A stretch of DNA of 36,933 bases from a virus (lineage: Duplodnaviria; Caudoviricetes): IMG/VR virus record IMGVR_UViG_3300030376_002653, positions 1 through 36,933 of that record, one strand, 5' to 3'. Below, piece after piece: positions 5,701 to 35,955 of the stretch (position 1 is its first letter; each line of letters begins with the position of its first letter). A program made the position numbers and the translations under genes. The notes beneath the pieces were generated by a model, which was not told the DNA's origin, did not search any database, and was given only the letters and a program-made list of their open reading frames with translations.

Positions 5701-5999
5701 AAAGAAAACTTGGAGATGGTCAAACATTTTTATTTTCAGAACATTCAGGTGAATGGGCGATTAATCACAGGTCGCCTGACCTAACTAAATTGCTAGATAA
5801 TAATAAAAGATTGCAACAGGAAGACCATAGTATAAGAGATGAATTTCGTTTATCTGCTAGGATTCCTGTTACAATTTATTATGAGTGGAAAGAAAAATTT
5901 GGCGTAGATTTATATGATAAAAATCACAAAGACGCAGTAAGAAAATTATTAAACAGTCCTGATTACAGGTACTTAAAGACAACATCTAGGATAATATAA
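5697..5999 (+). CDS. Hypothetical protein
   Basis: ARIP...W...LLNSPDYRYLKT motif; coupled at both ends. Confidence 0.75.
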   Translation: MKRKLGDGQTFLFSEHSGEWAINHRSPDLTKLLDNNKRLQQEDHSIRDEFRLSARIPVTIYYEWKEKFGVDLYDKNHKDAVRKLLNSPDYRYLKTTSRII

Positions 6000-9695: not shown

Positions 9696-10823
9696 ATGGC
9701 ATTAACATTACATGGTACAGTATCAGATAACACAGTAGTATTAAGTAGACCTAATGCTACACCTATTATTTATAATGGGGATATGTTATTAGCACAAAGA
9801 GGTACGAGTGCTACTAGCATTACAGGTGGTGGCTATCCTACTGTTGATAGATTTTATATGTCTATGTTAAGTGCAGGAACATTTACACAAACACAATCAA
9901 CAGATGTTCCAACAGGACAAGGTTTTACAAAATCGCTTAAATGGGATTGCACAACAGCTAATGGAAGTTTAGGTGCAGGTTCATATCTTTTACCATTGGA
10001 ACAACATTTTGAGGGGCAAGATTTACAATTATTAAGAAAAGGTACATCAAGTGCTAAAGGCATAACTATTGCTTTTTGGATTAAATCTAATTTGACAGGT
10101 AATTTTAATTTAGAAATTTGGGATAGAGAAAACGATAGGCAAATTACAAAAGCTGTTACTATTAATTCAGCAAACACTTGGGAGAAAAAAGTATCAAGTT
10201 TTCCTGCTGATACAACAGGCACATTGACAGCAGATAATTCTAATCGTTTACAAATTGCACTATGGGCAGGTGGTGGCACTAACTTTACTTCAGGTGGTAG
10301 TTTACAAACATCTTGGGGTGCAATCACACACACAAAAAGAGCATACAATACAGTTAATCTTGCAAGTAGCACAGATAACGAATTATATATTACAGGAGTT
10401 CAACTAGAAATTGGTGAGTTTGATTCTAACAGCATACCTGACTTTCAGTTTGAAGATGTAGGTACAAGTCTAGCTAGATGTCAGAGGTATTTTATTAGTC
10501 ATGCAGTTGCAGATGGTACAAGATTAGGTGATGGCATATTTAGAAGCACAACAAGAATAATAGGTAATGTGGATTGTATGGGGTTAGTGCCAAATATGAG
10601 AGCAACACCATCTGTTGCAACAACTATTACTTCGTTTCAAATTTATCATGGCTCAGATACAACTACAAACTGTGCAGCTTCATCAGGTAGTGGTCTTGCT
10701 ATGAGTGGTACTCAAGAGTGCAGAACAGATTTTACATTTTCATCAGGTTCTACAACAGGAGGACTACCTGGAAAGTTAAGAGCAAGTAGTGCAGGTGCTA
10801 TGCAATATGAAGCAGAATTATAG
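9696..10823 (+). CDS. Tail fibre / receptor-binding protein
   Basis: IYNGDMLLAQRGTS...ITGVQLEIG...LARCQRYF. Confidence 0.82.
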   Translation: MALTLHGTVSDNTVVLSRPNATPIIYNGDMLLAQRGTSATSITGGGYPTVDRFYMSMLSAGTFTQTQSTDVPTGQGFTKSLKWDCTTANGSLGAGSYLLPLEQHFEGQDLQLLRKGTSSAKGITIAFWIKSNLTGNFNLEIWDRENDRQITKAVTINSANTWEKKVSSFPADTTGTLTADNSNRLQIALWAGGGTNFTSGGSLQTSWGAITHTKRAYNTVNLASSTDNELYITGVQLEIGEFDSNSIPDFQFEDVGTSLARCQRYFISHAVADGTRLGDGIFRSTTRIIGNVDCMGLVPNMRATPSVATTITSFQIYHGSDTTTNCAASSGSGLAMSGTQECRTDFTFSSGSTTGGLPGKLRASSAGAMQYEAEL

Positions 10824-21406: not shown

Positions 21407-21655
21407 ATGGTAGCTAAGAAATATCAATCTAAAACAGGTGGATTAAACGAAGCAGGTAGAAAGTTCTTTAAAAGAACTACAGGCTCTAATTTAAAAAGAC
21501 CTGTTACAGGCAAAGTCAAACCAGGTTCAAAGGCAGCTAAAAGACGAGCAAGTTTTTGTGCAAGAATGTCAGGAGTCAAAGGTCCAATGAAAGACAGCAA
21601 AGGAAGACCAACACGTAAAGCGTTGGCATTAAAAAAATGGAAATGTCGCACATAA
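21407..21655 (+). CDS. Basic hypothetical protein (RRASFCARM family)
   Basis: GGLNEAGRK...KRRASFCARMSG...ALKKWKC. Confidence 0.8.
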   Translation: MVAKKYQSKTGGLNEAGRKFFKRTTGSNLKRPVTGKVKPGSKAAKRRASFCARMSGVKGPMKDSKGRPTRKALALKKWKCRT

Positions 21656-22269
21656 AAGGGGCTTTAATTCTACTCGCAATATTTATCGCAATGCTCAGTA
21701 TAGAGAATGCGTTTTCTGATGTAACATCTAGTGGAAGCACTACAAACACTCAGTCTAATAATGCTGGAAGTAATACAGCTATTACTGGTGGATATGAATC
21801 TAGCACTACATATCAATCAGGCAGTAGTTCAAACAGCACTACTAATAACGAGACAAATAATAGTACAAATCAAAAGACAGCCGTAAATAGTTCTACAGCA
21901 CCTGCAATGAGCGTTTATGGACAGGATAGTTGCGTTATACCACTTGCAGCAGGAGTGACTGTAATAGGCTTCTCAGGCTCATTTGGTAGCTATATGGTAG
22001 ATGAGGAGTGTGAACGTAGGAAAGCTACTTCAGTACTAGCTAAACTTGGTATGAAAGTAGCAGCAATATCTCTGATGTGTCAAGACGAAAATGTATGGCA
22101 ATCAATGTGGGACGCAGGGACTCCATGTCCTATTGAGGGTTTGATTGGAGAAGAAGCTAAAGCAAAGTGGACAGAAATAGGTGGCTTTCAAAAACCAAAT
22201 GTTAACAATTGGAATGGCAAACCTATACCATCAGGAATGATTAATGAAGATAATAATGTTAATAAGTAG
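21637..22269 (+). CDS. Secreted/envelope protein with S/T/N-rich linker and Cys-containing domain
   Basis: Signal-peptide-like N-terminus; DSC...ECERRK...LMCQD...AGTPCP. Confidence 0.75.
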   Translation: MEMSHIKGALILLAIFIAMLSIENAFSDVTSSGSTTNTQSNNAGSNTAITGGYESSTTYQSGSSSNSTTNNETNNSTNQKTAVNSSTAPAMSVYGQDSCVIPLAAGVTVIGFSGSFGSYMVDEECERRKATSVLAKLGMKVAAISLMCQDENVWQSMWDAGTPCPIEGLIGEEAKAKWTEIGGFQKPNVNNWNGKPIPSGMINEDNNVNK

Positions 22270-22369
22270 TTTATTGTTAGTAAGTTGTGCAACTCATAGT
22301 ATTACTCTAGGAGAAATGACAATTTACGGAAGTAATGAACAAGAAATACCAGCACCTGAAAGACGATGA
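22244..22369 (+). CDS. Small lipoprotein, 41 aa
   Basis: MKIIMLISSLLLVSCATH with lipobox LVSC; ATGA-coupled to 22366; below the ORF-track cutoff. Confidence 0.65.
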   Translation: MKIIMLISSLLLVSCATHSITLGEMTIYGSNEQEIPAPERR

Positions 22370-24039
22370 GATATTTAATTTTACTAATACCTGTTATAAC
22401 TTTTGCAGACATAAACACAACAGGTAATTTAATTACTAATGGTACATTCGATAACGGCACTACAGGTTGGACATTATCAGGTGATGCACAAAGAATTGGA
22501 GATTGTTGTCCTGGTGGACATGACTTAGAGTTTGGAGACAATGGTAGTATTGAGCAATCATTTAACCTTATAGGAACTTCTATAACACAACCTATGCTCG
22601 ACAATGGTATTACTCTAAATTCTACAGTTGAAGTACAAAATGGTGAGGGTGGTGTAGGCTCTTGGTGTTCAAGCTGTGGTGATGCTGATAGTTTTAGTAT
22701 TAGACTACAAATAAGAGATGAAAATAACGAAGTATTAACTTCAGTTATTCAGGAGAGATTTAATGTTACAGGAATTGATGGCAAAGATTTTAGCGATACT
22801 GTCTCGTATACAGGGACTGGTAGTAACATTGGAAATATTAATATTAGTGGTACCGATGCTGCTGCTCCTGCTAATCTTGGTGGTCCTAATGTAGATAACA
22901 TATCAGTCACAATGACTTATGATGATACTGTTCTTACTGCTATGCAAACAGCAATACTTAATACAGCATTTGAAGAAATAGAAGAAGTATTAACTACGAT
23001 TGAGCCTGAAGAATTATTTATATATGAAGAATTTATTGTAGAGGAAATCATACCTTTTGAAGAACCTCAGATAGCGACAGAGATGTTTAGTGAGGTTTAC
23101 ATAAAAGAGGTAGAGATAGAAGAAATAAACACAGGTATTGTAAATGTATTTCGACTAGCTCCACCTGAAGAAATTATAGAAATAAGCAGTTTACCTGCTA
23201 TAAAAACATTTGAAGAAATACCGATGGAGGTAAGTTATGGTAATCAAGAGACCATCGAAGAAATCGCAACAGAAATCCAAATTGAAGAAGAAGTTATTGA
23301 AGTCAGAGAAAACTCAAACATCGAAACAACCGAAAGTTTTGAAAACGCAGGAGAAGAATTGGTCGGACACCATGAATCTCAAGGCACAGGAAATGAGGAA
23401 GGAACACCTCAAACAACAGGAGGTGGAGTTGAACAAGAGCCTACTGAACAGGCTATTGAAGAAAACGAAACAAGTCCTGAACCTCCTGAAAGAGAAACTA
23501 CTGTTGCTTCTGCACAGGAAGTAAATGAAGCTGGAGGAGTTACTGAGGAAAATGAGATTAACGGAGAAGGAGAAACAAGAACAAGTCGAGATGGAGATGT
23601 TGGAGATGAAACTGATGCTAGAGCAGAAGAAGATGTCGAAGGCAGAAATCAAGAGGTGGAAGAAGGCAGGAATGAAAGAGTTTCTCCAAGAAATAATCAA
23701 ACTATTACAGTAGAAGCTATAAGAAAAAAGGTTAATGAAACAATAAAAAGAGTTGACCAAAGATTAGTAGCTACTTCAATGATAGTTGCAAAGTCAATGC
23801 AATCTAAACAAAACATAAACGAGTACTCTAATACAAATCAAAACATATTTAACAACCAATTGAATATAAATGGAGGTGATTACTTTGAAGCAAGACAATA
23901 TATTGATGCTAGAAATTTATATGCTGAAAATCAGAATGTTTATGATGACCCTGTTACACGATATCAAGAGAATCTTCAGGATAAAATAGACAACAGGATT
24001 AGAGCAGAAGAACACTTAAGGAGGATTCGTGGATATTAA
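22366..24039 (+). CDS. Secreted protein: beta-sandwich (CBM-like) N-domain, long Glu-rich linker, helical C-domain
   Basis: Short signal peptide; NLITNGTFDNGTTGW; GPNVDNISV; very acidic middle. Confidence 0.75.
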   Translation: MRYLILLIPVITFADINTTGNLITNGTFDNGTTGWTLSGDAQRIGDCCPGGHDLEFGDNGSIEQSFNLIGTSITQPMLDNGITLNSTVEVQNGEGGVGSWCSSCGDADSFSIRLQIRDENNEVLTSVIQERFNVTGIDGKDFSDTVSYTGTGSNIGNINISGTDAAAPANLGGPNVDNISVTMTYDDTVLTAMQTAILNTAFEEIEEVLTTIEPEELFIYEEFIVEEIIPFEEPQIATEMFSEVYIKEVEIEEINTGIVNVFRLAPPEEIIEISSLPAIKTFEEIPMEVSYGNQETIEEIATEIQIEEEVIEVRENSNIETTESFENAGEELVGHHESQGTGNEEGTPQTTGGGVEQEPTEQAIEENETSPEPPERETTVASAQEVNEAGGVTEENEINGEGETRTSRDGDVGDETDARAEEDVEGRNQEVEEGRNERVSPRNNQTITVEAIRKKVNETIKRVDQRLVATSMIVAKSMQSKQNINEYSNTNQNIFNNQLNINGGDYFEARQYIDARNLYAENQNVYDDPVTRYQENLQDKIDNRIRAEEHLRRIRGY

Positions 24040-24253
24040 AACCATAGCGACTGGCATAGGTCTAGTCATAACTATAGCTGGACTTTTTGTATATCAAGGA
24101 CAGTTAATACAAAGAATAGATGTTTTAGAGGCACAAACTGCACCAAATATAAAACCACTAGAACAAGATATAGCAATAAACAAAGCTGAAATAGCTGTAA
24201 TTAAATCTAAGATAGAAGAGATTAAAGCACGTTCAGATAATCCATTGAGGTAA
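24029..24253 (+). CDS. Membrane-anchored coiled-coil protein
   Basis: GAGGA RBS then GTG; N-terminal TM helix followed by coiled coil. Confidence 0.75.
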   Translation: MDIKTIATGIGLVITIAGLFVYQGQLIQRIDVLEAQTAPNIKPLEQDIAINKAEIAVIKSKIEEIKARSDNPLR

Positions 24254-24255
24254 TT

Positions 24256-24720
24256 ATGCCAAAAAGAGCAGATACAGAAAAAGAAACTAAGTTTATAAAT
24301 TATTTTTGTGAAGGAGAAACACAAGGTAATGCAACACAATCGGCAATAAAGGCTGGTTACAATAAAGATACAAAACCTGCACAAATGGGAGCTTATTTAA
24401 GAAAAAAATTATCTACAGATATAAGAAAGAAAAACGAAGAGATGATTGCTAATACTAGCAGTCGTGCAATATCTGTACTTAATAATTTATTAGAATCAGA
24501 ACAGGATAGTGTTAAGCTCAATACAGCTAAACTGTTGCTTGAGCTTGGAAACTTCCACAGTCAAAACATAAATATAAATGTTGACGATGTAAAAGAAAAG
24601 TCAGACGAAGAACTAATGTTAGAGTTGAAAACATTATTGATATCTAATCCTGATTTAAGAGAAGTTATAAAAGAACAGGCAGAAGAAGTTATTGACGAAT
24701 CAGAACAAACAAAACATTAA
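24256..24720 (+). CDS. terS: Terminase small subunit
   Basis: GNATQSAIKAGY HTH motif; VKLNTAKLLLELG. Confidence 0.8.
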   Translation: MPKRADTEKETKFINYFCEGETQGNATQSAIKAGYNKDTKPAQMGAYLRKKLSTDIRKKNEEMIANTSSRAISVLNNLLESEQDSVKLNTAKLLLELGNFHSQNININVDDVKEKSDEELMLELKTLLISNPDLREVIKEQAEEVIDESEQTKH

Positions 24721-25241
24721 CTAGTATCACCTATTTTTTCTAGAGCGTCTATTTCTATGCTTTCTATCTCTTCACGTATGTTTTTGTGCATTGGTGCAAT
24801 TTTTTTGTATTGTTTTTGATTCATTTTTAACAAGTTTGCTCTAATGTTATCTGTATATATAAAGTCACCATCTACGCAATGATGACATTTTTGTATATTA
24901 TTTTTTAATTTATAAAAACCTCTTCCAGAACAAAAAGGACATTTGATTACAGTTAACTCAATCAAAGAAGCTTTTACAACGGAACACACCAAATCTTTTT
25001 CCTCCGATTTATAAGTATTGTTATTATTTAATTCATATAAAAATACTTTATAAAAATGAGAGAGAGATTCATCATCATCTAAATATTTACCCAAAATAAA
25101 ATCCATTTCTTTATTGGTTAGTTTGCAATACGCCAATTTCAAAAGCACATCTTCTGTACTAAGGGCGTTGTGTATTTTACTTTTCTTCTCTGATATCTCA
25201 GGAGATGAAGGTGTCAGTTTTTTAATAATTTCAAGTTTCAT
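24717..25241 (-). CDS. Antiterminator Q-like Zn-finger protein
   Basis: CPFCSGRG...CHHCVDG zinc finger followed by an HTH-like segment; last gene of the leftward early operon. Confidence 0.55.
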   Translation of the reverse strand: MKLEIIKKLTPSSPEISEKKSKIHNALSTEDVLLKLAYCKLTNKEMDFILGKYLDDDESLSHFYKVFLYELNNNNTYKSEEKDLVCSVVKASLIELTVIKCPFCSGRGFYKLKNNIQKCHHCVDGDFIYTDNIRANLLKMNQKQYKKIAPMHKNIREEIESIEIDALEKIGDTS

Positions 25242-25515
25242 TTTTACTCTCGTACCAATCTAATAATTCTTGTTGTGAGCCAAATTTATTTTCCCAATTC
25301 CTAGTCCCTATGTGATGTATTCCTTCGATTCCTTGGTGATGAGTGTGACACAAGGGAATGTATTTTTCTGTCGATTTTAGCCCCATACCAGCCCCTGTAA
25401 AGTGATGTATACATGGTTCAGTATACACCCCATATACTTTTTGACAAACAACGCACCCAAAATCTACCATTCTGTTGTATTTTTCTTGTGTTTCCTTATT
25501 AGGTCTCTTAGCCAT
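25231..25515 (-). CDS. Ref-like (RecA-dependent)/DUF968-type HNH nuclease
   Basis: GCVVC...IHH...GMGLK...IPLCHTHH...GIH...WENKFG. Confidence 0.75.
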   Translation of the reverse strand: MAKRPNKETQEKYNRMVDFGCVVCQKVYGVYTEPCIHHFTGAGMGLKSTEKYIPLCHTHHQGIEGIHHIGTRNWENKFGSQQELLDWYESKNET

Positions 25516-25558
25516 TGTTTTAAATAATTGAATGTTAACAATTAGAAAGTAGATTCAA

Positions 25559-25915
25559 TTATAGTTCTTGATAAAATTTCTTTTCTCTACGTAAATTAGC
25601 AGATTGTGTTCTGAATAAATCGCAGAATAACTCAGCAGATTTCAGCTTGTACTTCAAATCTATGATTGTTTTCTTCAATTCTACTAGCTTTGGTATGTGA
25701 TTTATTACCTCTAGCTGTGTATTTGCCCATGCTTCCTTCTCTTTTTGAGTCATTTTTTTATCTGAGAGGCTAATATAGGCTTGGTCTCGCTCTAATTTCA
25801 TTTCCATTGAGTGCTTTTCGTACTCACTTTCAGCTTCAGCTAACTTGCTACCTAACTTTTCTATGTGAAAAACAGCTTTTTCTAGATTCTCATCTCCTAA
25901 TCTAATTGCACTCAT
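25559..25915 (-). CDS. Helical coiled-coil protein (possibly UvsY-like)
   Basis: KMTQKEKEAWAN...FRTQSANLR; family assignment weak. Confidence 0.55.
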   Translation of the reverse strand: MSAIRLGDENLEKAVFHIEKLGSKLAEAESEYEKHSMEMKLERDQAYISLSDKKMTQKEKEAWANTQLEVINHIPKLVELKKTIIDLKYKLKSAELFCDLFRTQSANLRREKKFYQEL

Positions 25916-26370
25916 TTCTTACACATGCCTACTAGCTTTTGTTTGACGTTTTGTGGCAAAGAATCATAGCTTTGATTATTCAATTCAGCTTTGTACATCT
26001 CCTTAAACTTCTCTGTCATCATATCAACCTCTGTCTCCAACATACCCCTAATCCTTTTCTCTCCAATTCTTCTAATCACATTCATAAATGGTTTGTTATT
26101 ATTTAATCTTTTTAGATTCTTTCTTGATATATAATCTCTGAACAAAGACTCATGTTCTGTTTCAGTTGCCATGTTTTTTGTAATATCACAGACTTGTGGT
26201 TTCCATTCAGAATCTTTTGTATGGTTCGATAGCGATTTTAAACAATCTTCTATCTGTTCGTCTTTGAAAGCTAACCAAAAAAATCCTTTTTGAACATCAT
26301 TTAACTTTTTTTGTTTAGGATATGCGTCATCAATTAGCCTAACGAACCCATTAAATTCTTGCTTGTTCAT
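25912..26370 (-). CDS. Helicase loader/inhibitor-like protein (G39P/lambda-P-like N-domain)
   Basis: MNKQEF...IDDAYP...W...HTKDSEWKPQVCDI pattern. Confidence 0.5.
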   Translation of the reverse strand: MNKQEFNGFVRLIDDAYPKQKKLNDVQKGFFWLAFKDEQIEDCLKSLSNHTKDSEWKPQVCDITKNMATETEHESLFRDYISRKNLKRLNNNKPFMNVIRRIGEKRIRGMLETEVDMMTEKFKEMYKAELNNQSYDSLPQNVKQKLVGMCKK

Positions 26371-26667
26371 CTAACTGTCCACTTCAAGCTGATTGTTTAT
26401 CGCTACTTGATTCCAATCTAACTCTTTCATGATTTCAATTAGGACTTCATCAGTCAAAAATAATGTTCCTGTCTCTGTTGTTCGCATTTTTCTCAAAACA
26501 GAATTGACTAATTCTTTGTAATCAGTCTCGCCTACCGACTCTTCAAGCTTATCTTCTGTCCATTCAATCATAGTATTCATAGGCGTTTCCCAACCATAAT
26601 TGTCTTGTGCTTTGTATTTTTCTAACTTTTCTTTAAAAGCTATTAATGTTTGTTTATCAAATTTCAT
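26371..26667 (-). CDS. Hypothetical protein, first gene of the leftward operon
   Basis: GAGGGG RBS upstream on the minus strand. Confidence 0.75.
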   Translation of the reverse strand: MKFDKQTLIAFKEKLEKYKAQDNYGWETPMNTMIEWTEDKLEESVGETDYKELVNSVLRKMRTTETGTLFLTDEVLIEIMKELDWNQVAINNQLEVDS

Positions 26668-26738
26668 TCGAACCCCTCAATTAATATTCATTCCTAATTA
26701 ATATTTATTATATTTAATATTAATTATATATGTTTATT

Positions 26739-26767
26739 AATATAGATATTAACTTATAGAAAGTCAA
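26739..26767 (-). promoter_or_regulatory. Sigma70-type leftward promoter
   Basis: TTGACT-17-TATATT on the minus strand. Confidence 0.7.
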
Positions 26768-26790
26768 ACTATTTATTTTTCAAAAAAGTC

Positions 26791-26819
26791 TTGCATGATT
26801 TAAAACATGATGTTATCTT
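26791..26819 (+). promoter_or_regulatory. Sigma70-type rightward promoter
   Basis: TTGCAT-17-TATCTT with extended TG. Confidence 0.65.
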
Positions 26820-26843
26820 AAAATCCTAACTTGAGGATAAATT

Positions 26844-27368
26844 ATGAGTACAGAAATCGCAGAACACTTGATGAAAGAGTATGACTTCCTTGTCAAAAAA
26901 GACTTTTGGGACTGTCATGGAACGCCAATCATAAAACATTACGCCTTATTGCAAGTTGCAGAAAAGAATCTGATAACTTTCGGTAGCCCTGATGTTTTGG
27001 ACATAGACCTAAAAAACAGAATATGTTGCATTGGCATACATGCCAAAATGGGAGATAAAATAGAATACGATATAGGAGAGGCTTGTCCTGAAAATTGTAC
27101 CAACGCATACACTACAGCTATGGCAATCAAACGTGCCAAAGACAGAGCCATAATTAAGATTTTAGGTTTGTATGGCAAAGTTTATTCTGACGCTGATGTT
27201 ATTCAAGACAAAGAGGGTAACAAAGCTTTTGCAGAAGATATACAAGTATGGCAAGGAACAACCGAAGAACAAGTAGCAAAGGCTAAAGCAGAGGTTGATA
27301 ACTTAAAAAAACAAACCAAAATTGATTTAAAAGAAAAAATACAAAAGGAAGTTGAAATAAATGAGTAG
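26844..27368 (+). CDS. Putative single-strand annealing protein (Rad52/Sak-like)
   Basis: AMAIKRAKDRAIIKILGLYGKVYSDAD; directly upstream of the exonuclease. Confidence 0.55.
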   Translation: MSTEIAEHLMKEYDFLVKKDFWDCHGTPIIKHYALLQVAEKNLITFGSPDVLDIDLKNRICCIGIHAKMGDKIEYDIGEACPENCTNAYTTAMAIKRAKDRAIIKILGLYGKVYSDADVIQDKEGNKAFAEDIQVWQGTTEEQVAKAKAEVDNLKKQTKIDLKEKIQKEVEINE

Positions 27369-28122
27369 AATAAATCTACGTTCAAGCTCGTTTGGAGACT
27401 ATTGTTTCGGCATGTATACCAAAAAAGACAAGAAAATGTTTAATGACCTTTATGATATACAAGAAGAATTTTCATGGTTTCAAAACTCTCTTATGCAGTA
27501 CGGAACAAAGCATGAAAGACATGGAATAGCAGAATTTGTTAATTGGTTTGGAGAAATGCCTGAAAATATATTAGGTGAACAGGTCAATTTGGTTGTGCCT
27601 GTAACCGAAGTAATGAGCATATCAAGTACGCCTGACGGATTTTGCATGGAAGGAAACGGATTGGTGGAGGTAAAATGTACCAAAACAAAGAAACAGGCAA
27701 AGCCTGACTTTGACGCTAGGTGGCTACCACAAATATACGGACAAATGTTGGTTGTAAATCAATATTACGCACTCAAAAAGATACCAAAAAAGATTGAGAA
27801 AACATTTTTAGTAAACTGGGCAGAGAAAAGCACAAAAATATATAAGGTAGAGAGAAACAAACAGGCAATAGATTTAATCTTGAGCCTTTTAAAACATTAC
27901 GGACACACACTAAGAAGTGTTAAAGAATGTGTTAAGGATTTACCAGCTTACATAGACTTGACAGATGAGCAAAAACGAAGTGTTTTAAAAATGATTAATG
28001 AAAAATATAATGAACATTTTATTCTTAATCTTACAAATCATGGAACGGAAGAAATGCAACATGAAATTATGGAAAAAGCATTAAAAGAAAACGTAATGCT
28101 GGTATATGAGTCATCGGTTTAA
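27361..28122 (+). CDS. YqaJ/lambda-exonuclease family nuclease
   Basis: MQYGTKHE, STPDG, VEVKC, QIYGQM. Confidence 0.85.
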   Translation: MSRINLRSSSFGDYCFGMYTKKDKKMFNDLYDIQEEFSWFQNSLMQYGTKHERHGIAEFVNWFGEMPENILGEQVNLVVPVTEVMSISSTPDGFCMEGNGLVEVKCTKTKKQAKPDFDARWLPQIYGQMLVVNQYYALKKIPKKIEKTFLVNWAEKSTKIYKVERNKQAIDLILSLLKHYGHTLRSVKECVKDLPAYIDLTDEQKRSVLKMINEKYNEHFILNLTNHGTEEMQHEIMEKALKENVMLVYESSV

Positions 28123-28156
28123 ATAATACAATGTTAACAAAAAAGGAGAGATAAAA

Positions 28157-28468
28157 ATGGCAGTTGAATATGAAAGTCTATTTCCCAACGATATTCTAAA
28201 AGACGAGGTAGACGCAATTTATGATAAGTTGAAGAAAATAAACGAAGAAACAGGTAAGAACCACCCTGTGTTTCAGAATGGAAACGTAGAAAGAGACGGC
28301 AAAGCTTATAGCGTAAGCCTGTGGTTTAATGAAAAAGAAGGCAAAAGGTTTTTAACTTACAAAAGAGAGCCAAAAGAAGCAAATACTAATTACAAACCAA
28401 AGAATAAAAGCTACCAAAAGCCAAATGAGTCTAAAAGTGGCGTAAAACCTTTTTGGGAGGAAGATTAA
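28157..28468 (+). CDS. Putative ssDNA-binding protein
   Basis: YSVSLWFNEKEGKRFLT and acidic PFWEED tail; follows SSAP and exonuclease. Confidence 0.55.
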   Translation: MAVEYESLFPNDILKDEVDAIYDKLKKINEETGKNHPVFQNGNVERDGKAYSVSLWFNEKEGKRFLTYKREPKEANTNYKPKNKSYQKPNESKSGVKPFWEED

Positions 28469-28723
28469 ATGTCTGTTGTAACCGACTACACCATTACGCA
28501 AGACCTAGAAAAGAGTCTTAAAGAATTGTTAGAAATAGTATATGAAAAGCTACCTGATGAGCATAAAGACACTAAATTACAGTTAGGAGCAAGGTGTGAG
28601 TTGTCATACAGGCAAGGACAAAGAGATGCATTGTTAAAAGCATTATGTGTATTGCAAAGCAAGGACGAACAAATCATGGGGTTATATGATGAAATGGCGA
28701 AACAAGTAAACGGAGAAAAATAA
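28469..28723 (+). CDS. Hypothetical protein
   Basis: GGAGG RBS; abuts both neighbours. Confidence 0.7.
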   Translation: MSVVTDYTITQDLEKSLKELLEIVYEKLPDEHKDTKLQLGARCELSYRQGQRDALLKALCVLQSKDEQIMGLYDEMAKQVNGEK

Positions 28724-29023
28724 ATGAGTTACCATAAACAATACTACAAAGACCACCCTGAGTTAAAAGAAAAACAAAAACTTAGATATGCAAGTCTAAC
28801 AGGACAAGAGAAGAGAGATTTTTTAAACAAACAGAAAGAAAAAAGAGCAAAAGAAACTTCTGAACAAAGAGAAACAAGATTAGCCTCACAAAGAATGAGA
28901 TACCAAAAAAACAGAGAAGACAGATTGATGTACCAAAAAAAGTACAACCAAAACAAGAACGAAAAAATTAAAAGCTTGGAAAAAGAAGTTAAAGAGTTAA
29001 AGAGTTCAATGTCCAAAAGTTAA
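28724..29023 (+). CDS. Basic coiled-coil hypothetical protein
   Basis: K/R/E/Y-rich; GGAG RBS. Confidence 0.7.
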   Translation: MSYHKQYYKDHPELKEKQKLRYASLTGQEKRDFLNKQKEKRAKETSEQRETRLASQRMRYQKNREDRLMYQKKYNQNKNEKIKSLEKEVKELKSSMSKS

Positions 29024-29050
29024 CATTGATGTATTTAAATCATATTAAAC

Positions 29051-29079
29051 TTGATTTTATTAAACAAATTGTTTATATT
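29051..29079 (+). promoter_or_regulatory. Sigma70-type promoter
   Basis: TTGATT-17-TATATT. Confidence 0.7.
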
Positions 29080-29085
29080 GATTAT

Positions 29086-29320
29086 AACAGGTTTATTAAT
29101 GGCTAATTTTCCTGTTGAGATAGAACTGTTAGGTGGAACGAAGCCCTAGCACTTCTTATAAGGTAGATAGTGTTGGTGGCATACTAGTATGCCGAGAGGG
29201 AATGTAAAAGCAGAACTGTTATGAGGTGTTAGATTGCCCGATTAACATAGATTAGTAGAACTAGTGGCTGTACAGAGAAAACTACTAATTGATGAACCAC
29301 TTTTCCCCTATCTACCACTA
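29086..29320 (+). ncRNA. Candidate structured RNA / long structured leader (RNA-1)
   Basis: Starts right after the promoter; several nested stems (see findings); no convincing ORF. Confidence 0.55.
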
Positions 29321-29334
29321 AAAAAGGAGGAGAT

Positions 29335-29490
29335 ATGAACAGAAACGAGTATTTGAAAGAAAGGCACGACAAAGCCAAAAATTCAAAAGGTAAAAGAAGA
29401 AAGTATGGAAGAATTAAACAATGTTTATCTAGGAAGAACAAAGGTGGTGGTGTGGTTTTAAACTTACTACGAGAGATTGAGGATAAATAA
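29335..29490 (+). CDS. Small basic protein, 51 aa
   Basis: AGGAGG RBS; MNRNEYLKERHDKAKNSKGKRRKYGRIK... Confidence 0.7.
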   Translation: MNRNEYLKERHDKAKNSKGKRRKYGRIKQCLSRKNKGGGVVLNLLREIEDK

Positions 29491-29491
29491 A

Positions 29492-29869
29492 ATGATTTCA
29501 ATGAGTACAACAATATATTTAACTAATGATTTCGCTGAGTGGATATTAGACGACTATTCGAAAGAAGAGATATTAGACGCTTGTATGGACGGAAAATATA
29601 GTCCGAGAGACTATGCTTTAGATTGTCAAGGTGATTGGATTCCGACTCAATATATAGATAATTGGGACGAAATAAGGTCTGTTCTTAATAAGATAGACGT
29701 TAAGTCTTTTATAAAGAAATATAAAAACTCTAAACTTTCTTATCGTTGGTGGGACAAGATAAAAGAGGGACAGTTAATCGGAGACTTTATGGACGAAGAT
29801 GGGGAGTTTCAAAACTGGCACGAAATTGGTGGGTTTAAATTTACAACAAAATACAAAAAGGACAAGTGA
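29492..29869 (+). CDS. Hypothetical protein
   Basis: ATG 29492 after GAGGA; in frame with listed ORF 29477. Confidence 0.7.
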   Translation: MISMSTTIYLTNDFAEWILDDYSKEEILDACMDGKYSPRDYALDCQGDWIPTQYIDNWDEIRSVLNKIDVKSFIKKYKNSKLSYRWWDKIKEGQLIGDFMDEDGEFQNWHEIGGFKFTTKYKKDK

Positions 29870-30025
29870 ATGAGTATAAATATTGACAAAAAAGAAGCAG
29901 TTTTTATTTCAAGCTGTTTGCAATTTGTAAGCAAACACAGAGAGATGTTTAATAATTGGAATGTTGATAAGTCAGTAATGGCGTATCACTTATACAAAAA
30001 GCTACAAAAAAGGATAACTAAATGA
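29870..30025 (+). CDS. Hypothetical protein, 51 aa
   Basis: MSINIDKKEAVFISSCLQF...; ATGA-coupled to 30022. Confidence 0.6.
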   Translation: MSINIDKKEAVFISSCLQFVSKHREMFNNWNVDKSVMAYHLYKKLQKRITK

Positions 30026-30348
30026 GTAAAGGTAGCAGACAAAGACCAATATCCAACAAAAAAAGTTTTAATGAAGGTTGGGACAGAATTTTTAACAAAG
30101 GAGAAAAAATGAACGAGCAAAACACAAACAAGCCAAATCAAAAAAAATACTATAAAGTAACTAGAATCTCAGACGTAACAGCTACTGATGAATATATAGT
30201 CAAGGCAGAAGATGAGGAAACTGCCGAATACATAGCCGAAAGCCAAAATGCTAATCCAAAATATTTTTGCGTACAAACGAAAGACGAAGACATAGAATAC
30301 AATGGAGATTCAGATTGGGCAGTACAAGAAATAAAAGAACCTGTTTAA
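30022..30348 (+). CDS. Hypothetical protein (internal start at 30109 likely)
   Basis: MSKGSRQRP...WDRIF N-peptide; second RBS AAGGAGA before ATG 30109. Confidence 0.7.
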   Translation: MSKGSRQRPISNKKSFNEGWDRIFNKGEKMNEQNTNKPNQKKYYKVTRISDVTATDEYIVKAEDEETAEYIAESQNANPKYFCVQTKDEDIEYNGDSDWAVQEIKEPV

Positions 30349-30389
30349 AATATGCAATGTTAACAAATACGTGTTAAAGCATAAAAAAG

Positions 30390-30418
30390 TTGACGTTATT
30401 ATATAATATTGTTACAAT
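30390..30418 (+). promoter_or_regulatory. Near-consensus sigma70-type promoter
   Basis: TTGACG-17-TACAAT with TGn extension. Confidence 0.75.
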
Positions 30419-30446
30419 AAAGTATGAAACATAGAGGAGTACAATT

Positions 30447-30701
30447 ATGAAGAACAATACACTATTTGGCTGGAACGTAGATAAGCCAAAATCAAAAATA
30501 GAAATGGTTTTAAAACATCTAATCAAAAGAGGAAACATAACGTCATGGGAGGCTATCACCAAGTACAAAGCCACAAGATTATCAGGAATCATATACAATC
30601 TAAGAGTTCACTTTGAGATAGAAACTGTAACTGAAAGAGACACCGAAGACGGAAGAAACAGTTACGCCATTTATAATTACGTGGGCAAAAAGAAAGTATG
30701 A
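30447..30701 (+). CDS. Winged HTH DNA-binding protein
   Basis: VLKHLIKRGNITSWEAITKYKATRLSGIIYNLR. Confidence 0.75.
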   Translation: MKNNTLFGWNVDKPKSKIEMVLKHLIKRGNITSWEAITKYKATRLSGIIYNLRVHFEIETVTERDTEDGRNSYAIYNYVGKKKV

Positions 30702-30940
30702 AGGTAATGTACAAAATGGTGGTTATAAAGCCACACCAAATCAGAGGCATCACGACTGAAAATATAAATCGTCTGTTGCCTCATGGGGTTCAGTTTTTGC
30801 CAAATTGTGCCGTTCTATTGGACGACAAGGGCAATGCCTCAGTCGTTTCAGAAGAAGGTTTCAGACACTTAGATAATTTAGAACATAGGGTAAATGACTC
30901 TCTATACCACTTATCTCAATTCTTAGATGTTAACAAATAG
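30698..30940 (+). CDS. Hypothetical protein
   Basis: ATGA-coupled to the HTH gene. Confidence 0.65.
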   Translation: MKVMYKMVVIKPHQIRGITTENINRLLPHGVQFLPNCAVLLDDKGNASVVSEEGFRHLDNLEHRVNDSLYHLSQFLDVNK

Positions 30941-31074
30941 ATTTATACACCAACCAATATACAATCCTGTTAGAACTTTCATGCCCTCTGATTCATACAA
31001 TCTTGTTTGAACTTTACTAAAACAAATACCTATTTTGTTAACATTTTATTATTGAATGATGTAGATTTTATGTG

Positions 31075-31358
31075 AAAAAAAAGTGCCTTAGACTTTTTGT
31101 TTGTAGAAATTGAGTAAAACTCTATCCACCTATAACCTGTCTAAGACACTTTAGCCGACTTCTACTTGTGGAGAGCAATAGATATTCGCACAGTAGCCCA
31201 GTCTAGTCTCTTCACCCTTTGATTATCCGTCCACATTATTATGTGCCGTTTTCTTCTACACCAAGTATATGTTTCGAACCATATAAATGACACCAAAGAG
31301 CGTATCACTTTTAAGCTTTCGAGGTACAACCTTGCGAGTTATACCGAGTTTCGAGCAT
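31075..31358 (-). ncRNA. Candidate standalone structured RNA (RNA-2)
   Basis: Minus-strand G.U-compatible stems, C-GCAA-G tetraloop, terminal 14-bp stem plus U-tract, upstream TTGCAT promoter-like element. Confidence 0.55.
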
Positions 31359-31451
31359 GATTATATTATTACACAGAAATAATAATAATGCAAACATTTA
31401 TTTTATTTAATTCATTTCAATTTAGATTTGTTAACATACAAAAATTAAGAC

Positions 31452-31480
31452 AAAAAAAAAGAGCCGTATTTCTACGGCTC
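31452..31480 (-). terminator. Rho-independent terminator
   Basis: GAGCCGTA-GAAA-TACGGCTC followed by T9 on the minus strand. Confidence 0.9.
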
Positions 31481-31486
31481 AATGTT

Positions 31487-31801
31487 TTATATCCATTCTT
31501 GCTTTACTGCATATCCATCATCAAACAAGAATCTTGAAAGCGTATAAATCAAGTGGAAACCCATATCCATTCCACAACCACCGACTTTTACGCCTCCTCC
31601 AGTCTTGTTTTTTCCTTCTTTCCAATCTAGAGCAACAGAAACAAACCTTGTTAAATTAATAGGCTTGTTGTCATCAATTGCTATAACGCTGATGTGTCGC
31701 ATCATTCCAGACTGAGAAACATGATTCAAGGTTGTAAACAATGAATCTCCTTCTTTTACGTAATTTTTCAAGACTTCTATAGCTTTATCTTTACTAATCA
31801 T
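31487..31801 (-). CDS. Conserved phage hypothetical protein (HVSQSGMMRHI...GCGMDMGFHL)
   Basis: AGGAG RBS; recognisable conserved motifs; function unknown. Confidence 0.8.
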   Translation of the reverse strand: MISKDKAIEVLKNYVKEGDSLFTTLNHVSQSGMMRHISVIAIDDNKPINLTRFVSVALDWKEGKNKTGGGVKVGGCGMDMGFHLIYTLSRFLFDDGYAVKQEWI

Positions 31802-31816
31802 TTTTTAAACTCCTAT

Positions 31817-31993
31817 TTAATAAATTAAAATATCTAATGCTATTAACATGAATGGAAAAAAACACACACATGCGACAGCAAAATACCACTTATAGCTTGT
31901 TACATCGTTCTTAAAAAGCTCATAAAGAGCGAAATAACAAGCACTAGCACAAATTAAGAAAAGAAATAAATACAGATTTATAATTAAATCCAT
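31817..31993 (-). CDS. Small two-TM membrane protein, 58 aa
   Basis: Hand-translated MDLIINLYLFLFLICASACYFALYELFKNDVTSYKWYFAVACVCFFPFMLIALDILIY; GAGG RBS. Confidence 0.6.
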   Translation of the reverse strand: MDLIINLYLFLFLICASACYFALYELFKNDVTSYKWYFAVACVCFFPFMLIALDILIY

Positions 31994-31995
31994 GC

Positions 31996-32160
31996 CTAAA
32001 ACCTCAATAATTCATAGTTGACAAATGCAAGATTGACAGAATCAATTCTGTATTTATCAACATTAAAATCATAAGTGTGTGAAGGATTATTTCTTAATTC
32101 ACTCTCTAGATAGCTTTTAATTTTTAATAAAAGTTTTTTATCAAATTTCAAAATTTCCAT
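31996..32160 (-). CDS. Hypothetical protein, 54 aa
   Basis: AGGA RBS; MEILKFDKKLLLKIKSYLESELRNNP... Confidence 0.55.
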   Translation of the reverse strand: MEILKFDKKLLLKIKSYLESELRNNPSHTYDFNVDKYRIDSVNLAFVNYELLRF

Positions 32161-32270
32161 AATAAAATTTCCTATGTAGTTAATTAATTAAGCTGAATTC
32201 ATTTACTATCGGTTGCTCTCCTTGAGTCTAAATCCATGCCTTATTTGTATAAGTGCATTTGCTTATAATA

Positions 32271-32299
32271 ATTATAATATTGATGTTATTTAAAAACAA
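32271..32299 (-). promoter_or_regulatory. Sigma70-type leftward promoter
   Basis: TTGTTT-17-TATAAT on the minus strand. Confidence 0.6.
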
Positions 32300-32391
32300 C
32301 ACATAAAACGCTATAAAATAAAATAAATTTATAAATGTTAACAATCATTATTTTAAAACATACATACAAATATGATTTAATAATGAATAGA

Positions 32392-32427
32392 TTTAAATTA
32401 TTTAATGTTAACATTTGAGATTTTAAA
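32392..32427. promoter_or_regulatory. Fully symmetric copy of the repeated motif TTTAAA-N8-TGTTAACA-N8-TTTAAA
   Basis: Best example of 14 copies (listed in findings). Confidence 0.75.
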
Positions 32428-32785
32428 ACATTGTTAAAGTCAATATTAAATAGTGCAAAATATTAAATTTTTATATTGACATTTTGAATTATTTAATTTT
32501 GTAAAATTCTGTAAGTCTTTGATTTTACGTTGCTCTTTAAAGGGTATTATTTGGCGTTTTTTAAACATTTAGATATGATACTATCACAATTTAAAAAACA
32601 TCAAAATAAGGTATTTAAGCTCAAAATATAACGTGTCAAGTGATTTGTGTAATAATTTCAATTTTGATACTTATATATACATATATATAGTATGATTTAA
32701 ATATTGATATGTTAACAAAAAAGCTTTTTAAATAACTTAAAATTTGATACAATTAAGCATGAAACATAAAAAAGGAGATATTAAA

Positions 32786-33958
32786 ATGGAAAAAAATATA
32801 TTAATAGAAAGAAAGAAAAAGCACGTTTCACGTGAAACATTTGCAAAATATAACAGCTTTAACAATGTAATGGGCAATAGCTGGAAATCATATAACGTTA
32901 TTGATTCATTAATTATTGAAGATAAAAACACGAAAAAAACTTTTAATAAATTCTATGCAACGTGCATTAGTAAAGCATTAAAAGACAATTTAACATCTAT
33001 TAGAGAGAGCAAGGAGTCTAATAAAAATAAAGTAGAATCAGATATCAAAAGATTATTTGATAATGCGATACTACAAGACTTCTTTAAATCTGTAGAAGTT
33101 AACAATGATGAAGAAGTTATACATTTTTTAAATAATGTTCCACGTGAAAAATGCTACAGAGTAGAACCTCATTATTTATTAGATAAGCATTTATCAAAAC
33201 AATGGGACTTATATAAAAACATGAATTATTTTGATAAGGATATTATTAAAAAACAAAAAATAGCTATTAAGAAATATAATGACGCTCCAGTACGTGAGAA
33301 AGTACTCAGAGATATAGTTACAAAATTAGTGCCTATATTCTCAGAGCGTGGTTATCATTTAGACTTATCAAAAGTAGATGTATCTTTTAACATTGAGATG
33401 TCAGGGAAAGTTTTAGGTCGTTGCTATCACGAATCATCAGATAAAGGAAATGATACTATTGCAAAAAATAAGCTTAGACAAATTGCAATACGTGGCAAAG
33501 TCTCCAAAACTATAGACGATGAAGGAAAAGAAACAATAACTTATAATCCGAATAATATAAGAGATGTGTTGCAAGTATTGGTTCATGAGCTAGTACACGC
33601 TTATCACGGAACAGAAGAAGGACACGGAACAAAGTTTAAAAACACGTGTAAAGATGTAGGATTGACTGGAAGTGGCAAAGACAATGCAAAATTTACAGCA
33701 ACAATTCCAGCTCCTGAATTTGATTCAATGTACAAGGACATATTAAAAATCAAATTGCCTAGTACAGAATTTCATTATGATAGTAAGGGACAATCTAAAA
33801 ATCAAAAATATAGATGCCCAATATGTAAAATGAGATGTACTGTAACTAATAGAAGTGCGAAACATTCAGAAACAAAAATGTTTTGTAATCATGAAGGAAC
33901 AGAATACGAAGGACACGACATAACACAAATGGAGCAATACGAAACAAAGAAAAAATAA
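32786..33958 (+). CDS. SprT-like zinc metalloprotease domain protein with C-terminal Zn ribbon, 390 aa
   Basis: AAGGAG RBS then ATG 32786; LGRCY, VLVHELVHAYHG..GHGTKFK..C..VGL, CPIC...CNH. Confidence 0.8.
   Translation: MEKNILIERKKKHVSRETFAKYNSFNNVMGNSWKSYNVIDSLIIEDKNTKKTFNKFYATCISKALKDNLTSIRESKESNKNKVESDIKRLFDNAILQDFFKSVEVNNDEEVIHFLNNVPREKCYRVEPHYLLDKHLSKQWDLYKNMNYFDKDIIKKQKIAIKKYNDAPVREKVLRDIVTKLVPIFSERGYHLDLSKVDVSFNIEMSGKVLGRCYHESSDKGNDTIAKNKLRQIAIRGKVSKTIDDEGKETITYNPNNIRDVLQVLVHELVHAYHGTEEGHGTKFKNTCKDVGLTGSGKDNAKFTATIPAPEFDSMYKDILKIKLPSTEFHYDSKGQSKNQKYRCPICKMRCTVTNRSAKHSETKMFCNHEGTEYEGHDITQMEQYETKKK
32824..32839. promoter_or_regulatory. parS: parS-like site 1 (CGTTTCACGTGAAACA)
   Basis: 15/16 match to the consensus TGTTTCACGTGAAACA; encodes the HVSRET peptide. 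Confidence 0.75.
33136..33151. promoter_or_regulatory. parS: parS-like site 2 (TGTTCCACGTGAAAAA)
   Basis: 15/16 match to the common variant TGTTCCACGTGAAACA; encodes NVPREK. Confidence 0.65.
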
Positions 33959-33980
33959 ATAAACTTACACACATAAAGAG

Positions 33981-34010
33981 AAGAGTCATATAAACGTGGC
34001 TCTTTTTTTT
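33981..34010 (+). terminator. Rho-independent terminator after the SprT-like gene
   Basis: AAGAGTCAT-ATAAAC-GTGGCTCTT followed by a T-run. Confidence 0.8.
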
Positions 34011-34435
34011 ATTTCAATTCTTTGATGTTAACATTAAATAATATAAAACTTTTAACAAGGTTTTGATTATAGACCTATAATAAAAAAACAAAGTCGGCAA
34101 AGGGTACTAATGCCTTATCCTTACTAGCCTATATATACTGAAAGCCTTTTATTATGGTTATATTTATTGTTAACATTTATTTGTTTAAATCATTTAATAA
34201 AGGTGGTACGCCACTCACTCACACGTAATAAATAAATTTAATGCCCATGAATAATTATTAAATAAAATAAATAAATAAAAAATAATTATTGATTCCAAAA
34301 TAATTCTCAACCGATTGCAAAATATTCTCAGACACCCACAACCCCCCATACACAAAAACAAATACAGGGTCGTCTCATTCACGCTATGGAGGGATAAATG
34401 AAGTCCATTAGCAACGTCTAATATACAAATAAATA

Positions 34436-34536: not shown

Positions 34537-35955
34537 ATGAAAAATGACAAGATAAGTGAAATACTAAACACACTTAAAACAAGGCGTGTTGAAAATAAAC
34601 TCAATTACTATAAGCCCTATAAATTTCAAATGAATTTTCATGAGACAGGGAGTCAGGCTAATCAAAGACTACTAATGGCTGCTAATAGGGTTGGCAAGTC
34701 CTATGTGGGGGCGATGGAGATGGCTGTCCACTTAACAGGTAACTATCCTAAGTGGTGGAAAGGAAAACGCTATAATCAGCCTATTAGGGCGTGGGTGTGT
34801 GGTGCGAGTAATGAAACCACAAGAGATATCTGTCAAAAAGAATTATTTGGGCAACCAGACAACCCTAGAGATAAGGGAAAGGGAAGTATTCCTAAACATC
34901 TCATTGGTGAAACGACAAGAAAACCTGGAGTGCCAAACGCACATTCCTCCGTTCTTGTAAAACACAAAACTGGTGGGTGGTCTCGTGTTGCCTTTAAAGC
35001 CTATGAAATGGGTGCTGAAAAATTTATGGGGGAGTCGATTGACCTAGTATGGCTCGATGAAGAACCTCCACAAGACATTTATTCACAATGTATTACAAGG
35101 ACATTGGACAGACAAGGACAAGTATATCTAACCTTTACGCCTGAATCAGGCATGACAGAGGTAGTACAGAATTTTACAACGAGTTTGAAGCCTAAACAGG
35201 CATTGATTACAGCAGGTTGGGAAGATGCAGAACATCTAACTGACGATATGAAAGAACAGATTTTACAGGCATTACCTCCTCATGAGCGAGAAATGAGGTC
35301 AAAAGGTATTCCGATGATAGGGTCAGGGCTAGTATTTCCTATAGACGAGGACAAGATAGCATGTGAGCCTTTTCAAGTTCCTGAACATTTTGCTAGGATT
35401 GCAGGGCTTGATTTTGGTTATGACCACCCTACAGCCGTTGTATGGATTGCATGGGACAGAGATGAGGACGTTGTATACGTTTATGATTGTTATAGTCAGT
35501 CCAAACAAACAGCAGATTATCACGCATCACACATTAATGAGCGTGAAGGAAGTCATTACATACCTATAGCTTTTCCTCATGATGGTTTCCAACACGACAA
35601 AGGGTCAGGGATTACCCTTGCAGAACAGTACAGAAACGCTCACGTTAACATGTTGCCGTTTCATTTTGAAAATCCACCTGCTTTAGGCGAAAAAAAAGGT
35701 GGTAACAGCGTAGAAGCAGGACTAATGGAAATGTTGACACGTATGGAACAAGGAAAATTTAAAGTTTTTAATACTTTGTATGACTGGTTTCAAGAATATA
35801 GGCTTTATCATAGAAAAGATGGTAAATTAGTTAAAATTAAAGATGATTTAATGTCAGCAACAAGATATGCAGCGTTAAGTTTACGTTATGCAGACACAGA
35901 AACGTCAAAATGGAACAAAAAGGGTCGATTAGGTCCTGATGTAGCAATAGTTTAG
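34537..35955 (+). CDS. terL: Terminase large subunit (P22 gp2-like)
   Basis: Walker A AANRVGKS; Walker B VWLDEEPP; motif III TFTPE; nuclease GLDFGYDHPTA...DDLMSATRYA. Confidence 0.95.
   Translation: MKNDKISEILNTLKTRRVENKLNYYKPYKFQMNFHETGSQANQRLLMAANRVGKSYVGAMEMAVHLTGNYPKWWKGKRYNQPIRAWVCGASNETTRDICQKELFGQPDNPRDKGKGSIPKHLIGETTRKPGVPNAHSSVLVKHKTGGWSRVAFKAYEMGAEKFMGESIDLVWLDEEPPQDIYSQCITRTLDRQGQVYLTFTPESGMTEVVQNFTTSLKPKQALITAGWEDAEHLTDDMKEQILQALPPHEREMRSKGIPMIGSGLVFPIDEDKIACEPFQVPEHFARIAGLDFGYDHPTAVVWIAWDRDEDVVYVYDCYSQSKQTADYHASHINEREGSHYIPIAFPHDGFQHDKGSGITLAEQYRNAHVNMLPFHFENPPALGEKKGGNSVEAGLMEMLTRMEQGKFKVFNTLYDWFQEYRLYHRKDGKLVKIKDDLMSATRYAALSLRYADTETSKWNKKGRLGPDVAIV

Follow-up and report, generated by a model that had tools for sequence, protein, structure and literature searches.

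The 36,933-nucleotide stretch of DNA analysed here (the window) is the whole of a 36.9-kb Caudoviricetes virus record, IMG/VR IMGVR_UViG_3300030376_002653, and it carries, almost entirely in its early region, 14 copies of a two-part DNA word made of a palindromic core (TGTTAACA, or AGTTAACA in two copies) and a hexameric arm, TTT[A/C]AA, eight nucleotides away. These sites are real, are under selection and, within the early region, stand at promoters and gene junctions. Comparison of relatives indicates that their reader is probably a SprT-like protein encoded just upstream of the terminase gene terL and, if it is, repression is more likely than not its main output. The fuller proposal, in which the 14 sites are operators of a dimeric SprT-like repressor in a non-integrating, parS-bearing phage, is one that we believe and doubt in about equal measure.

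A two-part DNA word in the early region

Protein scans of the window recognised portal, scaffold, capsid, helicase loader and exonuclease. TerS (24256-24720) and TerL (34537-35955) are separated by the whole early region, in which the replication genes and small early genes lie. The closest cultured TerL is that of Pelagibacter phage EXVC032P (60% identity), and a scan of GTDB with TerL returned a single distant locus (49%) that gives no clue to the host.

A preliminary description of the sequence had listed the cores and hexamers, and its coordinates were borne out throughout, with every named hexamer 8 nt from its core. Twelve of the 14 cores are TGTTAACA and two are AGTTAACA. An exact TTT[A/C]AA stands at a spacer of 8 in 12 of the 14; at other spacers up to 30 the exact arm occurs once at 9, once at 22 and nowhere else, including the range 0-7. 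As had been claimed, the first 22 kb hold no exact core: none occurs upstream of 22186, where CGTTAACA at 18792, lacking an arm, is the only related word. A position weight matrix scan of the window added no further copies.

Neither the number of sites nor their position is expected by chance. The exact string TTTMAA-N8-TGTTAACA has 11 matches, a count reached in none of 100 dinucleotide shuffles (the largest gave 0). When the sequence was shuffled in 500-bp blocks, which keeps local AT content, 13 two-part matches were observed against a mean of 0.027 and a maximum of 1 in 300 shuffles, and the core alone was observed 12 times against a mean of 1.85 and a maximum of 6. Twelve of the 13 exact matches fall between TerS and TerL, an interval comprising 26.6% of the genome (binomial P 1.2e-6). 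The sites, numbered along the window, are as follows.

22186-22207, plus strand: site 1, TTTCAA-N8-TGTTAACA, within coding sequence 21637-22269; kept in relative G001
25519-25540, plus strand: site 2, between two leftward replication-module genes, its arm 3 nt from the next ATG; orthologue in G001
28118-28139, plus strand: site 3, its arm overlapping the stop of the exonuclease gene and its core just ahead of the next ribosome-binding site
29018-29039, minus strand: site 4, AGTTAACA with right-hand arm, centred at -64.5 of a predicted promoter (TTGATT 29051, TATATT 29074)
30344-30365, plus strand: site 5, centred at -63.5 of the strongest predicted early promoter (TTGACG 30390, TG-n-TACAAT 30413)
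30914-30935, plus strand: site 6, degenerate arm TCTCAA, at the end of open reading frame (ORF) 30698-30940
31036-31057, minus strand: site 7, degenerate arm TTGAAT, intergenic
31415-31436, plus strand: site 8, past the terminator of the leftward unit
32336-32357, minus strand: site 9, in the divergent control region
32392-32427, no strand (symmetric): site 10, fully symmetric 36-bp arm-N8-core-N8-arm, in the divergent control region
32696-32731, plus strand: site 11, left arm exact, right arm nearly so, centred at -46.5 of the promoter predicted for the SprT-like gene (TG-A-TACAAT, 32745-32753), its right arm over the -35 position
33083-33104, plus strand: site 12, AGTTAACA, inside the SprT-like coding sequence; kept in L186 and not in L013
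34012-34047, plus strand: site 13, directly after the SprT terminator, centred about -58 from a conserved TATAAT (34076-34081) before terL
34168-34189, minus strand: site 14, before terL

The full symmetry earlier attributed to the copy at 32392-32427 was confirmed, and those at 32696-32731 and 34012-34047 each possess a second near-arm. The spacers are all different (13 of 13), mostly sharing 2-5 of 8 bases. Conservation was compared with relative G001, which is about 72-80% identical in DNA to the window in alignable blocks. Across 10 orthologous sites the core is 98% conserved, the arms 72-75%, the spacers 52-56% and the flanks 43-54%, and the in-gene site at 22186 is kept in G001 even though its spacer codons have changed amino acids (GFQKPNVNNW vs GFQKLNVNKW). 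Because cores and arms are kept while spacers drift, and because the in-gene copy survives those amino-acid changes, selection acts on the DNA word itself. Among known elements, dif/Xer, attC, CtrA, PrfA, IHF and Pho-box sites, judged by eye, do not fit in spacing or conserved bases. A search of viral contigs for the symmetric 36-bp pattern found 11 loci, with an array in the known relative only.

A SprT-like protein as candidate reader

The word travels with one gene. Among 80 TerL loci collected as relatives, the identical two-part motif is present in L013 only; L009 has the core with a different arm, and several others carry arrays of a second word, GTTTAAAC. All array-bearing TerL relatives possess a SprT-like gene with an HExxH motif just upstream of terL. 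Of the 53 loci with at least 1.5 kb upstream of terL, 10 have the gene and all 10 of these the array (seven of the ten seeded the profile and the other three are near copies), and the remaining 43 have neither, many array-free loci holding only 1.5-5 kb upstream of terL. On a TerL tree, from which rows with less than 1.8 kb upstream and two distant rows were omitted, the presence or absence of the gene matches that of the array in all 59 rows, with five changes of state; L015, which has both, has a TerL nearly identical to those of L017 and L026, which have neither.

When all 126 reading frames of the window were compared with 24 loci, the SprT-like gene alone matched all seven TGTTAACA loci and none of the 14 array-free ones. 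The preliminary description had proposed a check for co-occurrence with a specific gene; the gene that this check brought out is one it had not considered. Of its own candidates, the winged helix-turn-helix protein at 30447 has homologues in array-free loci (L039, L079) and none was found in L108, L009 or L103, the XRE-like protein at 2449 is present in eight of 14 array-free loci examined, and ORF 26371 has no match in any of the 24 loci, not even in the relative with the same motif. Its more general suggestion of a dispersed binding array for a single protein, linked to promoters and to the parS region, gains support.

32759-33958, plus strand: SprT-like gene, the candidate reader; likely start 32786, protein of about 390 aa

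The protein has an N-terminal extension of about 170 aa, a zincin domain (HELVH...H) and a C-terminal CxxC...CxH zinc ribbon. It matches Pfam PF10263 with E 2.7e-6 and 27.6 bits (cut-off 25.6), and a Pfam scan that bore on possible homology to Ogr/Delta zinc fingers returned SprT-like and a weak Peptidase_M91 match only. H276, E277, H280 and H289, the HExxH residues and the third histidine, are invariant or nearly so in 24 homologues. In an AlphaFold model (mean predicted local distance difference test score, pLDDT, 74) the N-terminal part is helical and is followed by the zincin domain and the ribbon. The closest structural match of the zincin domain is human SPRTN (6mdx_A; Z 8.7, root-mean-square deviation 2.9, 99 aligned; Foldseek E 2.7e-3), followed by Wss1 (PDB 5xbn, Z 7.4). 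Folded alone, the N-terminal extension found no fold match, its best being Z 4.5 on a single helix, with none in the viral library and nothing usable in the Atlas; a missing match of this kind is evidence of neither absence nor novelty. A homodimer prediction scored 0.32 against a mark of 0.42, which gives no verdict, and is not used as evidence.

Beyond simple co-occurrence, the spelling of the word follows the lineage of the protein. A search with the SprT alignment retrieved 80 loci spanning 30-71% GC. Across 83 loci that were compared, the proteins are of a long form, like that of the window, or a short form. The long forms make up one side of a branch with support 87. All 11 long-form loci have TGTTAACA and none has a GTTTAAAC array, although four short contigs among them show just the two TGTTAACA copies that flank the gene. 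Of the 72 short-form loci, 45 are enriched for GT[T/G]TA[A/C]AC (GTTTAAAC, GTGTAAAC or GTGTACAC) and none for TGTTAACA. The two forms differ in their zinc ribbon and have homologous catalytic domains. Among cultured phages, those of Arthrobacter, Streptomyces, Acinetobacter and E. coli carry 22, 39, 9 and 5 copies of the short-form word, respectively, one copy in each standing 17-81 bp before the SprT gene; with hosts as varied as these, a single host factor is hard to invoke.

The arm varies likewise within the long form. Type A (the window, L013 and L102) is TT[T/G]AAA at N8, type B (L009 and L108) is TGAC at N9-10 and type C (L100, L103 and L105) is [T/A]TAAA[T/C] at N8, and the three types coincide with three SprT sub-clades. 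Type-A sites are present in all nine metagenome contigs fetched by the type-A protein, which are largely close relatives, one holding the window's own protein and several being near copies. A search for the type-B pattern together with TATAAT found 31 loci, with an array only on the contig of L009. As a separate observation, the near-identical phages L155-L171 have KDGTR instead of KQ[G/T/S]TR ahead of the zinc ribbon; they hold 0-1 copy of the word and no array, and theirs is possibly a natural variant with loss of binding or a changed specificity.

Promoter placement and the proposed repressor

Promoters were predicted with a simple sigma-70 score using approximate weights. Core centres lie at -62.5 to -65.5 of predicted start sites in 18 of 68 promoter matches against 2.1 expected, an interval that was picked after viewing the window and L009 and in a set in which L009 and L108 contain duplicated promoter blocks. 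In two held-out genomes the same interval accounts for 8 of 29 against 0.9 expected (P 2e-6). At this spacing three sets of AT-rich control words gave 0/6, 0/40 and 0/58, and the short-form GTTTAAAC arrays 0/61. The arm was considered as a -35 element, but this was not accepted as its general role: a second peak at -46.5 to -49.5 arises partly since the type-B arm spells TTGAC, and no conserved -10 lies behind the arm in the aligned sites.

The SprT-like gene is itself bracketed by sites. One precedes the SprT operon in 11 of 11 listed loci, which were hand-picked, and where an extended -10 was matched this own-promoter site is centred at -45.5 to -56.5 in eight of nine loci and at -37.5 in the other. 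Another directly follows the SprT terminator in all 10 loci listed (8 of 8 downstream in a separate count), and in 9 of 10 loci a site is found about -56 to -60 from the conserved predicted -10 before terL, where the putative late promoter lies. The conserved block at this last position reads TATAAT and then TCG[G/C]CAAA...TAATGC.

Palindromes of 16 bp that resemble the parS consensus accompany the gene: in eight of eight long-form loci, and in L044, one copy or two lie no more than 0.75 kb from where the SprT gene starts. The palindrome also occurs in two loci that have no SprT gene. In the window there are two.

32824-32839, no strand: parS-like palindrome within the first codons of the SprT-like gene
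33136-33151, no strand: second, weaker parS-like site inside the SprT-like gene; also in L013

We propose that the SprT-like protein would bind its sites as a dimer and repress phage transcription. To judge from co-variation, the two C-terminal zinc ribbons would read the palindromic core TGTTAACA, and the N-terminal extension, present in this clade only, would read the arm 15 bp away on one or both sides. Occupancy over the -35 region of its own promoter would lead to autorepression; binding near -64 on early promoters, and near -56 to -60 on the pre-terL promoter, would cover the UP-element region and hold these promoters down; and the copies at gene junctions or inside genes would act as roadblocks, much as stoperators do. 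Since every long-form lineage has parS next to the gene, and no integrase was recognised, the repressed state may be a non-integrated carrier or prophage state partitioned by host ParB. The repressive sign is suggested by the overlap with the gene's own promoter, the copies away from promoters, the dispensability of the gene in relatives and the clear plaques of an Arthrobacter phage with a truncated SprT. That phage, Liebe, in which SprT is truncated alongside three other changes, forms clear plaques and its twin Maureen turbid ones, and the same report describes the repressor of Cluster AZ phages as unidentified (bioRxiv 10.1101/2025.05.26.655371).

Several observations weigh against the SprT-like repressor. 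With respect to the reader, the composition of the ten gene-plus-array loci and the shortness of many array-free ones, both described above, limit the co-occurrence; supported independent pairs point the same way in 3 of 3 cases, too few for significance (p 0.25); 27 of the 72 short-form loci have no array (near copies of a single phage account for 13), Bordetella phage LK3, also of the short form, has one copy of its word, and the long clade may have a single origin, which would make the word switch one event. The N-terminal extension matches no known DNA-binding fold, so that its assignment to the arm would derive from co-variation, and for the very basic, helical 99-aa ORF 28724-29023, too, close homologues are confined to array-bearing relatives, with either word, making it a possible partner. 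With respect to repression, a centre at -63 to -65 is an activator position, as for Ogr and p4, outside the core promoter; the protease site of the protein is intact and may serve in switching, self-cleavage or the cutting of a partner; within the window alone the -63.5 spacing is found for just 2 of 13 cores (P 0.16); 20 of the 28 strong predicted promoters, many of which may be false, have no core nearby; and no integrase or plasmid initiator that might speak for a dormant state was recognised in the window.

The same placement would suit a SprT-like protein serving as an activator, or as the early-to-late switch of a lytic phage, that contacts RNA polymerase alpha from about -64 or from -56 to -60. 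The tight -62.5 to -65.5 spacing, the pre-terL site in nine of ten loci and the want of a recognised integrase agree with this, and there are precedents in P2 Ogr, on inverted repeats about -55 of late promoters, and phi29 p4, at -58 to -104 (PMC3152322). We nevertheless consider it unlikely, given that many copies lie at junctions or in coding sequences without a promoter, that the short-form GTTTAAAC arrays lack such spacing (0/61), that the own-promoter site covers the -35 position, that loss of a homologue accompanies clear plaques in the Arthrobacter report cited above, and that 43 of 53 relatives dispense with the gene, unlike an essential activator. It is quite unlikely, in our estimation, that the sites are instead docking pads from which an active, DNA-guided protease would cut proteins on early DNA (host silencers, defence nucleases or the C-terminal domain of the polymerase alpha subunit, alpha-CTD), transcription being affected through proteolysis. 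Conservation of HExxH and the third histidine in 24 homologues, a best fold match to the DNA-dependent protease SPRTN and then Wss1, the even spread of short-form arrays, also in coding sequences and with one copy in the loop of a conserved hairpin, and the adjacency of SprT to an antirestriction gene in LK3 would all be at home with docking; yet no substrate is known, and the autoregulatory placement and fixed promoter spacing are more simply read as occupancy. SPRTN-type activation by DNA, moreover, is not known to be sequence-specific.

The SprT-like protein could also be a mere passenger of the module, and the reader could come from the host or from a different phage gene, for instance ORF 28724-29023. 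The region does seem to recruit host proteins (parS here, clusters of DnaA boxes in L054), and ORF 28724 has close homologues in six array-bearing lineages, against only weak ones in array-free loci. But the same close form of ORF 28724 occurs in L044 and L069 together with GTTTAAAC and so does not follow the word switch, L015 has only a weak form, and the distant SprT loci give no match; it is a weaker second candidate. That sister phages have three different arms, and that one word recurs across phyla, suits a reader encoded by the phage itself, and none of 401 Pseudomonadota genomes has more than two copies (22 vs 11 for a control), although the true host may lie outside this set. Taken together these points leave a reader other than SprT rather improbable. 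Very improbable is the notion, raised in the preliminary description, that the sites are crossover points at which a site-specific recombinase swaps gene cassettes. Gene-content breakpoints do lie near the sites, and an extra stretch in L193 is bounded by a duplicated site region; however, the sites lie at gene junctions anyway, homologous exchange between repeated promoter blocks explains L193, and some copies are inside coding sequences. All 13 spacers differ, where Xer or tyrosine-recombinase partners would be expected to have identical ones, no recombinase was found among the scanned proteins of the window, and no dif-like arm, such as the XerD arm TTATGTTAAAT, occurs in the window.

The SprT-like repressor might also have a larger setting, which we regard as doubtful: a family of Spartan-type protease regulators in which the ribbon would read an 8-bp palindrome, an exchangeable N-terminal domain would add a lineage-specific arm as a modular immunity code, and proteins would be cut only when the protease is docked at its site. 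Such sequence-addressed proteolysis, for example of alpha-CTD at -64 or of host silencers, would shut the phage down or shield it.

Other features of these early regions were recorded along the way. In the window, ORF 24717-25241 has a zinc-ribbon pattern that tentatively resembles that of Q antiterminators, and 31075-31360 is a structured stretch that holds no gene but a long hairpin (z -2.6), possibly a small RNA; an Rfam scan that included this stretch gave no match. The homologous hairpin in L044 (about 5980-6050) has GTTTAAAC in the loop. Relatives that lack SprT carry repeats of other kinds: L054 has 12 DnaA-box-like TTATCCACA copies clustered just upstream of terL at 9437-9711, L039 has, in the place of the array in its early region, a different element, four copies of a GTTTCG-N12-CTCATCAGTATTACTT block at 7240-8580, and L007, L025, L041 and L056 have short tandem-like ATTCAATC or TAGCCAAT repeats in control regions upstream of terL. 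Two close strains, L186 (2902-3318) and L193 (433-820 and 2105-2302), carry additional small genes that separate the promoter at site 11 from the SprT gene, and in L193 the site-8 region is duplicated around an inserted stretch.

Comparison with known systems

A testable reader can now be named for a conspicuous phage DNA word. The concerted change of ribbon and N-terminus with core and arm is as clean as sequence evidence gets for SprT-like phage proteins reading such words, and three natural arm and protein pairs allow a direct swap of specificities. If the proposal is true, the common gene annotated as a SprT-like protease would represent an unrecognised class of repressor and would fill the missing-repressor gap in Cluster AZ, and a dormant, non-integrated state would be indicated in a group of uncultured marine podoviruses with pelagiphages as relatives.

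The nearest parallel for the array is found in the Cluster A mycobacteriophages such as L5 and Bxb1, which, according to PMC6550527, have 20-30 asymmetric 13-bp stoperators genome-wide, oriented with transcription. As there, many copies of one site are present, some in promoters and most not, and the motif diverges with its protein. Unlike stoperators, the 14 sites described here are two-part with a palindromic core, occur in both orientations and in the early quarter of the genome, and would be read by a zincin fold with a zinc ribbon; the main arm is also palindromic and, with respect to transcription, lies ahead of the core in some copies and behind it in others. The genome-wide spread of the Cluster A sites is not seen in the window, but relatives with the short-form protein do have genome-wide arrays.

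SPRTN/Spartan and Wss1, whose catalytic-domain fold the model of the SprT-like protein appears to share (Z 8.7 and 7.4), remove DNA-protein crosslinks in eukaryotes, and no dispersed sequence motif is known for either. P2 Ogr and phi29 p4 are likewise bound upstream of promoters, at -55 or at -58 to -104, and Ogr is a zinc protein acting on inverted repeats; in contrast, both are described as small stand-alone late activators, with no protease domain and no dispersed array (PMC3152322).

Closest in protein is Lizalica gp46 of the Cluster AZ Arthrobacter phages, a SprT-like protein with HExxH and a small, predicted DNA-binding C-terminal domain that has been put forward as a candidate for lysogeny control (bioRxiv 10.1101/2025.05.26.655371). 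The protease domains are homologous. The Cluster AZ protein is, however, about 198 aa long and its phages carry GTTTACAC genome-wide, the Lysogeny section of that report naming no binding site, whereas the protein of the window is about 390 aa, with a different zinc ribbon, an N-terminal extension and TGTTAACA plus an arm. Among the matches listed in our search of the openly available literature, none links SprT-like proteins to a DNA motif (TGTTAACA, GTTTAAAC or GTTTACAC). The window contributes the switch of word with protein clade, the second, lineage-specific arm, the fixed promoter spacing and the tie to parS, and the SprT-like protein, a likely binder of these sites, would be a master repressor of a kind not yet described in phages.

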